Source of the DNA: Eledone cirrhosa
Taxonomy: Eukaryota
Direction: 5' to 3'
Length of the DNA stretch: 64,000 nt
Assembly (NCBI GenBank): GCA_964016885.1
Contig: CAXHJY010001087.1
Coordinates: 67,165 to 131,164 of the forward strand
Shown here: positions 13,286 to 47,915 of the stretch, one piece after another
Layout of the letters: each line of letters starts with the position of its first letter
Numbering within the stretch: position 1 is the stretch's first letter
Notes under the pieces: model-generated
The model's input: only the letters and a program-made list of their open reading frames with translations
Told to the model about the DNA's origin: nothing
The model's database searches: none
Made by a program: the position numbers and the translations under genes

Positions 13286-15015
13286 AAAAAAAATGAGGAA
13301 CTGAAGAAAGTAGAGGAAATTTTGCAAAGCCACCAGAATATGAACACAATGTCATCATAGAAAACTGAACCCCACTCTATGACTATATGCCTTTGTATGT
13401 GCTCTAATTAGTTTGTTGCCAATGAGTGACAGGGCACACACTACACTATTTTAACAAATAAATGAGTATGACTTATTAATTTTAAATATAGCAATTTGCT
13501 AACACTCTATCCCTATGTCTTTAAGTCAGGGAATGGTGTTTAGCAGAAGAAATTCTGATGTTTAGCAGTATAACATCCAAGGAAAGTTTTTATTTTGTAT
13601 AATACAAACAAATGCAAAGTTTTGTATTGGACTTTGTGAGACAAAAACATTATTTCCTGCTTATTGAAAGAATAAAGCATGACGGATTCATTGTACAGAG
13701 CTGTAAAGTTATTGAAAGACAATATGAAATGTCCAACAAGAATTGTATTATAAAGCTACAGAGCTGAGGTTTAAAACAAATATGATGCTGAGAAAGATTA
13801 GCATGAATTAAAATATCATTAGACAATGGTTCTATATACAGGTATGGAAATATGTTTGTCTGGTTATAGTGTGGGTATATAAGTTACAGTCTAAGTTTGG
13901 GTGAAATAAGGTCAAAGAATCCTGAGAGGACACATGAAATATTTGAGTCTGTGTATGTTGATAGTAAGTGCGTGTGTGTAACTGTGGTTGAAGAACTACG
14001 CAAGTTCGTTATCAATGTTTGAATTTTTACGAATGACTTACGATTCAAGTGTCTACACATTTCGTCCTTTACGAAGCTAAGGTAGAGAATTGAGACAGAA
14101 CTCTTAAAGAACAAAAAATATAATAGAGTGCTAAGTGTCTATTAAATTAGGATAAACTAATCGATGGTAATCGTCTTCTCATATGTGGATAAGTTGAACA
14201 AGTCGATTTCTTCATTTCCTGCAGGATTCACACTTTTAGTTAAAAAATGAAACAAAACAAAAGATAAAATAAAGTTGTGTATTAATTTTTACTTTGAAAA
14301 TTAATTTTTAAACTGACATTTACGGCAGAACTATAGTTTAAGTAAGCCCTCGATTTGTTTTCTCAATAATGTATATATTTTATTGATTCCAAAGGGTATA
14401 TTGCGATTATGTCGAAATTAAAATGATACTTTTAAAAATACTTTTATTATTGTATAATTCCGTTCGTTAATGTTATATTTATTACTAAATACTTTCGATT
14501 TGTGTTTGTAGTAGGCTAAAAGATTTGTTCAGTACGCCTTCCAATTTAATGTTTATAATAAACTATCAGAATGGCTCGGGAGTTGTTCTAGGGTTCTTAT
14601 ATATTTGATATATATTTATCCTTATCGAGCCTCATGAAATAAATACGTTTGTTTATATTTTGTTATTGTGTATGCAAAAATATCTGCACACGAATATATA
14701 ATTATATATATATTAAAATAACAGATTAAAGTTTAAGCAAAGAATTGTTGCTTTCACCCTTAACGGGATCTTCTGAAACTAAAAAAAATCAATCTGTGAA
14801 CGCAGAAGTAAATATTTCGAAAAACGTTACACACTATATATATATATATATATATATATATTGTTATACTTTGGGAGGGTCATGTTGCCAATAAGAAACA
14901 CACGCACCAGTTGCTTTCACTTCAATTTATTATAAATTTATAAATTTACAAATTTACAAACTTATAAATTTCTAGTTGGTTGGTTGGTTCCACAACCAGA
15001 TAGTTGTTTATATAT

Positions 15016-15060
15016 AGTCATAGTCCTTTCGTCACACACTCTGTGACCTCTTCAGTGACT
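15016..15060 (-). ncRNA. Minimal type-I hammerhead ribozyme (inverted copy)
   Basis: Reverse complement of 15613-15657. Confidence 0.8.
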
Positions 15061-15612
15061 GGGGATTCCTTTCTTTGTTTCTGTGCCTTTCCTTTCTTCT
15101 ATCCTACGCCATTTTGTTTCTGTGTGTGTGTTGTGTGCTCAGTTTGCGCATGCGCCACATCCGGGTGTCTGTGTGTGTTTGTGTTCATTTATCTATTTAT
15201 CCACACACAGAAAAGACACAATGTTTAGGCAAATTACAGAGGCAGTAAGCATAAAAGAATTAAAACCAAAATTAAATAGAAAATATGAGTGGAACAGCAA
15301 CATCACAACTTACAATTAAGGACAAAATGAAAACACACACAGGACAAAATGAAAACACACACACACATAGAACAAACAACTTACAATTAAGGACAAAATG
15401 AAAACACACACAGGACAAAATGAAAACACACACACACATAGAACAAACAACCAACCAACAATAAATAAATAAACAAATAGATAAATGAACACAAACACAC
15501 ACAGACACCCGGATGTGGCGCATGCGCAAACTGAGCACACAACACACACACAGAAACAAAATGGCGTAGGATAGAAGAAAGGAAAGGCACAGAAACAAAG
15601 AAAGGAATCCCC

Positions 15613-15657
15613 AGTCACTGAAGAGGTCACAGAGTGTGTGACGAAAGGACTATGACT
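15613..15657 (+). ncRNA. Minimal type-I hammerhead ribozyme
   Basis: agtca CTGAAGA g gtcaca-gagtg-tgtgac GAAA g-ga-c TA tgact; intact core, CUA cleavage triplet. Confidence 0.82.
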
Positions 15658-46478: not shown

Positions 46479-46650
46479 TAACATCTCATTTCTACAGCTG
46501 AGTAAACTGGAGCAATGTGAAATAAAGTGTCTTGCTCAAGGAAACAACACATCACCTGGTCTGAGAATTGAACTCACAACCTTTCGATTGCAAGGCTAAT
46601 GCTCTAACCACTAAGCCATGTGCCTCCATTATACATGTATATATATATAT

Positions 46651-46754
46651 ATAGGAAAAAGTATGACCCCAACGGCAGAGCTCAAGCCGTTTCGACGGTT
46701 ATTTCTGGATTGAAATGGCTTGAGCTCTGGCGTCGGAGTCATACTTTTTCCTAT
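46651..46754. mobile_element. Second copy of the 104-bp half-HHR hairpin
   Basis: Same length and same internal junction as 44467-44570; inside (TA)n. Confidence 0.75.
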
Positions 46755-47261
46755 ATATATATATATATATATATATATATATATATATATATATATACAT
46801 GTATATATATACATGTATATATATACATGTATATATATATATATACATGTATATATATATATACATGTATATATATATATGTATATATATATATAAATAT
46901 ATACATGTATATATATATATATATATATATACATATGTATATATATATATAAATATATACATGTATATATATATATATATATATATGTGTATATATATAC
47001 ATAATAATATATGTAGTAAGAAACAGGGTTGAAGAACCACATTGTTTGAAATATTTAACCATGAAGCAGACAGAATGATAAAATAAAATTATACAAACTT
47101 TCATTTATATATATATATATATATGTATATATATATATATATATATATATATATATATATATATATATATGCATATATATATATATATATATATAATGTA
47201 GGAAGTGAGTAATATTTTATATATATATATATGTATATATATATATATATACATATATATA

Positions 47262-47915
47262 AATGGGAAAAATGAAATTTCATTTCTCACTCTTAGTACG
47301 GCTGATACTTAAATATAAGTACGTATACATACATATATGTATACAGACGTACAGTAGTATATATATAGATACACACATGCACACATATATATGTGTACGT
47401 ATGGGTTTACCGAACATTTATTATAATGTTCGGTTTGTTTGTAAACAAACAGCCCGAATTAAGCCGTACATTGTTCGGCAACCATCGTTGCCCTTGTGTT
47501 CAACACTGACAAAGGAACGATGAACTAGTTTCTAGCTTATTAGCTTTCATCAGCACCGTATACCTTCCTGTCAGTCGATTAAACGTTTGAAAGTATATAC
47601 TTTCTTTATGCATATTAATGGCTGAGCAGCCTAATTTGTATATCGATATATCGAGTTAGTTAGTCGACCGAAAACGATAAAGGGAAAAAATGAAATTTCA
47701 TTTCTCACTCCTAGTACGGCTGATACTTAAATATAAGTATGTATACAGACGATGGTTGCCGAAGAATGTATGGCTTAATTCAGGCTGTTTGTTTACAAAC
47801 AAACCGAACATTATAATAAATGTTCGGTAAACCCATACGTACATATATATATGGTTTGCATGTATGTATATAATACTACTATACGTCTGTATACATATAT
47901 GTATGTACGTATACA
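47262..47915 (-). mobile_element. Non-coding HHR element: ~418-bp unit, partial direct repeat and inverted arm
   Basis: 47681-47746 repeats 47263-47328 at an offset of 418; 47749-47915 is an inverted copy of about 47322-47488. Confidence 0.8.
47517..47559 (-). ncRNA. Minimal type-I hammerhead ribozyme
   Basis: acggtg CTGATGA a-agct-aata-agct-a GAAA ctag TT catcgt; palindromic stem III, GUU triplet. Confidence 0.8.

Follow-up and report, generated by a model that had tools for sequence, protein, structure and literature searches.

The stretch analysed here (the window) comprises 64,000 nucleotides of the genome of Eledone cirrhosa (assembly GCA_964016885.1, contig CAXHJY010001087.1, positions 67,165 to 131,164) and contains a series of palindromes made of Penelope-like elements (PLEs). 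A sequence-only reading had listed nine such sites, with the sense of the hammerhead ribozyme (HHR) or open reading frame (ORF) minus on the left arm and plus on the right. Self-comparison of the window confirmed inverted repeats at all nine, with an arm identity of ~79–99%. The palindromes fall into eight unrelated high-copy families, labelled by window site A (14.9 kb), B (30.2 kb), E (32.6 kb), F (37.7 kb), G (38.8 kb), H (42.8 kb), M (44.4 and 46.7 kb) and J (47.3 kb). Exact matches to 20–26-mers in the genome numbered 25,840 for A, 12,239 for B, 2,783 for E, 3,256 for F, 15,714 for G, 3,920 for H, 24,241 for M and 3,506 for J. The left arm was − and the right arm + at 9/9 sites. Strand sense was read from reverse transcriptase (RT)/GIY-YIG frames within the window at 32.6–37.3, 38.8–40.5 and 14.9–15.9 kb, from the frames of longer copies elsewhere for the families at 30.2, 42.8 and 44.4/46.7 kb, and from exact CTGANGA-stem-GAAA hammerhead cores only at 37.7 and 47.3 kb; six families were thus oriented by frames and two by cores only. 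Few or no exact cores occur in B, E and M, so the HHR sense claimed earlier is unreadable in these three. Each family has two fixed 3' ends 41–89 nt apart, a short end (S) and a tailed end (T), and the arms at each site are listed by end in Table 1.

Table 1. Arms of the nine palindromes, with strand and internal features (window coordinates).
Feature	Position	Strand	Remarks
Family A (Neptune-like PLE), S arm	14861..15198	-	hammerhead core 15027-15055
Family A, T arm	15199..15871	+	end of GIY-YIG frame; hammerhead core 15618-15646; tail 15815-15871
Family B (Neptune-like PLE), S arm	30197..30341	-	hammerhead-like core, degenerate only
Family B, T arm	30342..30555	+	tail 30493-30555
Family E, S arm	32588..34884	-	5'-truncated RT + GIY-YIG frame 33206-34915
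Family E, T arm	34883..37288	+	frame broken; tail 37247-37288
Composite arm, family F pseudo-LTR, S end	37486..38031	-	hammerhead core 37735-37772
Mirror composite arm, S end	38189..38725	+	core 38448-38485; inverted copy of same flank
Family G (Hydra-type PLE), T arm	38726..38887	-	tail 38726-38810; without hammerhead core
Family G, S arm	38888..40469	+	end of GIY-YIG frame, long 3' region, hammerhead core 40377-40423
Family H (Hydra-type), T arm	42756..42950	-	tail 42756-42818; core 42867-42903
Family H, S arm	42951..43117	+	core 43033-43069; 15-mer repeated at joint
Family M (Hydra-type), T arm	44402..44520	-	tail 44402-44467, internally deleted
Family M, S arm	44521..44567	+	
Family M palindrome, both ends S	46654..46751	.	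exception to S+T
Family J, T arm	47262..47748	-	partial tandem of ~420-bp unit; inner tail 47682-47728; core 47529-47553
Family J, S arm	47749..47914	+	

The elements add new members to PLE clades already described. Family E contains an RT domain (Pfam RVT_1; E 2e-10), a GIY-YIG domain (23.1 bits, cut-off 22.6) and a DKG motif, both domains lying on − in the left arm and on + in the right arm. Longer copies of A, B, G and M carry RT and GIY-YIG-type frames, read by eye, in the same sense as the arms, and the endonuclease end of the frame, the only part read (by eye) in family H, has this sense as well. No RT or endonuclease frame was seen in the short copies of F and J examined, and these two families were assigned to PLEs by hammerhead core, S/T ends and tandems only. 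Tandems of the ~420–440-bp family J unit were common (8 in 100 listed rows), suggesting a non-coding mini-element. We assign G, H and M to the Hydra clade and A and B to the Neptune type, on motifs rather than on a tree, and place family E in no particular clade. The former (L379, L398, L414) have a CxCX5C linker, a GIY-YIG without CCHH and a C-terminal CxxC/CxH, and G also has DKT. These linker and C-terminal motifs, the DKT of G and the TA targets agree with the Hydra clade as given in Craig 2021 (PMC8557442), from which G differs by RWT in place of RWK and M by the lack of an exact hammerhead core. In A and B a CX2-5CxxC (Neptune-type) linker precedes a C-terminal GIY-YIG with CCHH (frames L326 and L343, by eye); Nematis has a similar linker. 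Exact hammerhead cores were found, per 30 copies, in 16 of A, 22 of F, 28 of G, 27 of H and 18 of J, compared to 1/30 in B, 0/30 in M and none in the 32.6 kb reference copy of E. Among the 150 of 178 Rfam matches listed there was no hammerhead, and microRNA-like hairpins appeared below the gathering score only. A miniature inverted-repeat transposable element (MITE) or other DNA transposon, defined by fixed terminal inverted repeats, a constant spacer and symmetric ends, was considered for the 44.4 and 46.7 kb sites and rejected: 30 family M copies show variable centres, usually carry an 80-nt tail on one end, and when long run into RT and GIY-YIG frames. Their earlier inclusion among the PLE insertions was thereby borne out.

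The tails of the eight families measure 41, 48, 59, 64, 65, 80, 88 and 89 nt. In family E, whose repeat unit is 3295 nt, the tail is the first 41 nt beyond the pseudo-long terminal repeat (pseudo-LTR, pLTR), where the next repeat unit begins, and it continues into the ORF. Reading through past T into the next unit was seen in E, G and J, giving partial tandems/pseudo-LTRs. Among 30 listed copies of family F (L171–L200) just 2 had a tail, unlike the other seven families.

S and T were paired in nearly every two-armed insertion. Across all eight families 237 scored pairs consisted of 219 S+T, 12 S+S and 6 T+T. The family E sample, all 79 loci behind 100 listed matches plus the window copy, contained 46 head-to-head joints (39 S+T, 1 S+S, 0 T+T and 6 with an unscorable end). 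The seven other families contributed 197 pairs (180 S+T, 12 of these with the tail partly matched, 11 S+S and 6 T+T) from sampled loci that included ~90 stretches picked as listed pairs irrespective of end type, with pairs too close to a locus edge excluded. Single hits were about half S and half T in most families (48:47 in E), so that an independent choice of ends predicts S+T in about half of the pairs; the observed 219/237 is above this chance level. Near-perfect palindromes also followed the rule (94/98 S+T). In the window 7/9 sites are S+T. The sequence-only reading had noted one arm 40–70 bp longer at its 3' end, which agrees with these seven sites, although the range of tails is wider than it gave, and at 46.7 and 37.5–38.7 kb, both S+S, there is no one-sided extension.

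The single head-to-head geometry proposed earlier was likewise the predominant one outside the window. A hand count over eight patterns, using the first 100 matches listed per pattern, all from the start of contig C1, gave ~145 head-to-head neighbours within ~5 kb and 8 tail-to-tail neighbours; the equal frequency of tail-to-tail cases that would have spoken against the sequence-only reading was not seen in this count. Six of the 8 were spaced 1.6–4.5 kb apart and resemble separate insertions, and the other two point towards each other from either side of a TA run. The latter (L193/L194 and L234/L235), the sole close tail-to-tail pairs among the matches listed, are mirrored across the TA run as S+S and T+T and are possibly DNA-level palindromes.

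Both arms of family E insertions come from a common source, and independent insertions are excluded in this family. Subfamily-diagnostic sites differed between the arms of 37 E pairs in 71 of 1067 cases, compared to ~440 expected. Rare shared alleles occurred at 2.87/kb within E insertions (15/37 pairs) and at 0.11/kb between loci (1166 same-subfamily E pairs as control, a value that the rarity cut-off lowers slightly), so that rare variants were shared between the two arms 26 times as often as between same-subfamily copies. One RNA, or two RNAs of one locus, fit this single source equally. Correlation between arm lengths was not significant for 37 simple E pairs (rho 0.24; P = 0.16). The S arm reached further 5' in 23/39 E pairs (T 12, equal 4) and in 40/180 pairs of the other seven families (T 39, near-equal 94, unclear 7), i.e., S was longer in 63/219 and T in 51/219 S+T pairs overall; at the window E site the T arm extends ~40 nt further 5' than the left (S) arm. 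Outside E the arms were compared by a reference-free method because automatic reference choice was unreliable for B, H, J and M. As the S arm is often the longer one 5', the tailed arm cannot be copied from it. About 14 inverted arms consisted of the tail only, with no overlap with the partner arm. A fold-back copy cannot contain sequence missing from its template arm, and plain fold-back cannot produce the longer-arm and tail-only cases. Two further regularities were considered: a lockstep in which the T arm trails the S arm by one tail length was rejected (4 E pairs offset by 43–51 nt, with no peak evident elsewhere), and T arms ending exactly at S (4 of the ~14 tail-only arms) were too weak a signal to use. 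At seven E loci (L048, L053, L057, L083, L091, L095, L107) arms were built of at least two segments from different element parts, as after template jumps or later deletions.

Family E joints without inserted bases (23/45) showed an overlap of at least 1 nt in 21/23 and of at least 2 nt in 14/23, compared to 40% and 14% by chance. Some E inserts were short and locally templated. The window E joint, scored as an insert, is a reference mismatch, and other copies give a 2-nt overlap at 34883–34884.

TA runs adjoin 346/374 scored ends, so this genome cannot separate the effect of TA from that of geometry. Families E, F and G stand in a row at 32414–40511 with only TA runs between them, as by serial insertion into one microsatellite. 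Three of the six direct target duplications found are clear 14–16-mers, visible where the flank is not pure TA; one is a clear 16-bp duplication in a target other than pure TA. Inverted flank duplication was seen in 2/187 pairs. Read-through copies of E, G and J have TA-like bases of the element's own at or just past T, and one family A copy suggests the same, which would allow short pairing between primer and RNA. Behind the S site of G, H, M and F, and behind the T site of G, the sequence allows a four-base stem; folding predictions agree with it behind S in G, H and M but give it no clear support behind T or in F.

A 5' stopping point specific to the family is common to many arms of B, E, G and M. 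Of 121 E arms, 21 begin within a 28-nt stretch, and single copies do likewise; the 30.2 kb site is a near-perfect palindrome whose centre is the recurrent 5' end of family B. Hammerhead cleavage was rejected as the origin of the recurrent 5' end, since in family G the expected cleavage site is ~120 nt downstream of the palindrome centre. A TATA-like hexamer lies ~30 nt upstream of the recurrent end in family B; given the usual spacing of TATA and initiator elements, a transcription start is therefore more likely than hammerhead cleavage.

The 37.5–38.7 kb site has a structure of its own. Each arm consists of pieces of a rarer element, then the family F pseudo-LTR, then ~140 bp of degenerate TA flank that is duplicated in inverted orientation, and both ends are S. 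The 157 bp separating the arms are unrelated to family F, the sole other exact match to the rarer piece is without family F, and no third copy of the composite was found. This site is a later duplication of a composite, via DNA repair or read-through RNA copying, and the earlier view that all sites are one-step insertions does not extend to it. Pieces of a rare ninth family form part of the composite; at L421:1439-1559 this family shows an inverted short arm joined to an apparent tail-only arm between TA runs.

The insertion layout itself is already published. Arkhipova 2013 (PMC3846280) described head-to-head arms, a one-sided tail, target duplications of 8–10 bp and junction palindromes and proposed self-priming. 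Craig 2021 reported the same layout with a TA bias, attributed the tail to endonuclease resolution and named the formation of the inverted arms and one-sided tail an open question. Two-strand priming and two start sites are published too: for Poseidon of Anolis carolinensis, Frangieh 2024 (PMC11167929) found both target strands cut and extended in vitro, with two RNA start sites bracketing the tail and a protein predicted to dimerise, left the formation of the inverted arm and one-sided tail to steps not yet validated and, in the main text, assembled no model of the inverted arm. An explicit PLE double-priming model or S+T rule was not found in the literature searched; supplements and subscription papers lay outside the search and may state it.

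We consider it probable that each palindrome is one insertion of an endonuclease-containing (EN+) PLE by asymmetric double target-primed reverse transcription from one source template. Most likely both strands are nicked, with one complementary DNA (cDNA) primed at S and the other at T, so that the two arms would end at different fixed points. The element protein would nick both strands of an AT-rich target, each freed 3' end priming its own cDNA, and a few TA-type bases may pair the primer with the RNA at both S and T. Both cDNAs would stop independently, or both would reach the RNA 5' end (probably the pseudo-LTR transcription start), the latter giving near-perfect palindromes. Their 3' ends would then be joined through microhomology-mediated repair, and loss of one cDNA would leave a plain single copy with either end. 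A dimeric protein acting on a single RNA molecule is the arrangement we infer, and two RNAs from one source locus would fit as well. Direct support comes from the geometry, the two fixed ends, the near-obligate pairing, the common source and the microhomology or short inserts at the joint. The sequence-only reading, in which both target strands prime and the truncated ends are joined, was probably right in its central point and is the best-supported reading, except that the priming is not symmetric, as S and T differ. Its placing of the priming near the RNA 3' end also needs correction: both sites are internal to the repeat unit, and the family E tail runs into the ORF. The self-complementarity of (TA)n to which it appealed probably helps and seems unnecessary, given the 16-bp duplication in a target not purely TA and the rotifer head-to-head copies with 8–10 bp duplications (PMC3846280). 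A wider proposal, that asymmetric twin priming is obligate in several PLE clades, is tentative and has in our view a little less than an even chance of being right; one dimer and one RNA would use hard-wired sites 41–89 nt apart (in Hydra-type elements each just before a small conserved stem), and tails, inverted pseudo-LTRs and solo-pLTR palindromes would all come from one reaction.

Several observations weigh against asymmetric double priming. Pairs departing from S+T make up 18/237, at least three of the S+S calls being scoring errors on inspection, and family F is lopsided, with 29/31 hits S and two-armed copies rare (5 pairs per 100 listed rows). E joints were scored as insertions in 22/45 cases, partly reference mismatches. 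Direct target duplications were present in only 6/187 pairs (shuffled mean 2.2, maximum 4). The longer-arm calls outside E come from a noisy method, with 7/180 unclear, and near-equal arms (94/180 in seven families and 4/39 in E) are predicted by fold-back as well. Shared variants fit double priming, fold-back and later gene conversion alike, and the 37.5–38.7 kb site requires another or an added step. No listed short-read contig from four runs spanned the 34.9 kb joint, which is uninformative either way. Finally, the initiation sites in Frangieh 2024 lie on RNA non-homologous to the cut DNA, compared to the short pairing proposed here.

The main rival is a trimmed hairpin, in which an antisense RNA or the first cDNA folds back and primes itself, the tail is present on both strands and the endonuclease trims one arm at S, either ahead of integration or in its course. 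This combines the published views of self-priming (PMC3846280) and endonuclease resolution (PMC8557442) and would explain the common source, the joint microhomology, the many near-perfect palindromes and the one-sided tails. It would, however, need tails to be trimmed from either strand at similar rates, given the similar numbers of longer S and longer T arms, and poorly fits tail-only inverted arms without any sequence in common with the partner. At E loci L053, L083 and L095 each arm has sequence absent from the other (later deletions possible), and the two RT start sites bracketing the tail and the two-strand extension were measured in vitro (PMC11167929). We regard the trimmed hairpin as unlikely. 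A local inverted duplication at the DNA level, by fold-back repair after a plain insertion, matches the 37.5–38.7 kb site, where the duplication takes in ~140 bp of unique flank together with pieces of two elements, both ends are S and a third copy was not found. Inverted flank duplication in only 2/187 pairs speaks against it elsewhere, and DNA copying cannot tail one arm only, as in 219/237 pairs, which excludes it as a general cause and makes it very improbable as the explanation of the palindromes.

Two independent insertions into the same TA run, with tail-to-tail pairs lost or unseen, are more improbable still. TA runs do collect serial insertions, such as E, F and G at 32.4–40.5 kb, and certain T+T or S+S pairs of long span appear nested, but in the palindromes the arms meet directly, through microhomology or a short insert without intervening TA, share private variants and combine an S end with a T end. 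Assembly of long inverted repeats is known to be hazardous (PMC8557442), and the joint at 34.9 kb is unspanned by any listed contig; an assembly or chimeric-read artefact is nevertheless scarcely credible, as the arms differ by ~0.5–10%, end at two family-specific sites and recur as palindromes at hundreds of loci in eight families with flanks that are not mirrored.

Asymmetric double priming can be compared with three described systems. With the published EN+ PLE insertion unit (PMC3846280, PMC8557442) the palindromes share head-to-head arms, a tail at one end, palindromic joints, TA targets, partial tandems and, where visible, target duplications. Published tails are 30–40 bp, shorter than those measured here, the tail is described there as optional or frequently one-sided, no tally of S/T pairing is given in the passages compared, and palindromes are attributed there to self-priming and here to two target primers. 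Poseidon in vitro (PMC11167929) is alike in the cutting and extension of both strands, two internal RT starts bracketing the tail, an AT-rich target and a predicted dimer. It differs in that, in the main text, the two sites are not linked to the two ends of an insertion and the inverted arm is unexplained; its primer and RNA start are without homology, and it belongs to another clade.

In twin priming of LINE-1, a long interspersed nuclear element (LINE), both nicked strands prime on one RNA, leaving 3' ends outward and microhomology at the joint; the upstream site taken by the second primer varies, and there is no overlap between the two pieces. The tail-only arms here show exactly this non-overlapping layout, whereas in the PLEs both sites are fixed 41–89 nt apart and the arms usually overlap by 0.05–2.4 kb.

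Dense TA runs occur in the window, which also contains several further features. An older broken PLE-like copy with a family B-like tail, absent from the sequence-only list, lies on − at 24570–26203 and includes an inverted 227-bp frame piece (25275–25501 and 25978–26203, 97%). Degenerate palindromes of 72–77% identity occur at 24320–24566, 25848–25945 and 4386–4565. C2H2 zinc-finger frames lie on + at 5168–6529 and 21292–22368, and a broken hAT transposase with a C-terminal dimerisation domain (E 5.5e-07) at 27291–29964. RTE-like LINE fragments were found at 30692–32414, 43220–43680, 45425–46477 and 48267–48990, one with RT and a PHD finger. A repeated element at 46478–46629, 43820–43974 and 26203–26350 has a weak tRNA match just below the Rfam gathering score and is probably the head of a short interspersed nuclear element (SINE). 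A 239-bp direct duplication (49080–49318 and 49619–49857) is 99.6% identical, and a satellite with a 48-bp period and ~174 copies occupies 54520–62471.

The S+T rule in eight families predicts that priming on the two strands of a single target molecule begins at distinct RNA sites, and as a counted, multi-family rule it allows this open question of mechanism to be tested with the in vitro system already available. If true, double priming would take the place of self-priming as the explanation. Retrotransposition would then account for many thousands of the hairpins in this genome, short and long, and such by-products may be mistaken for MITEs or microRNA precursors.

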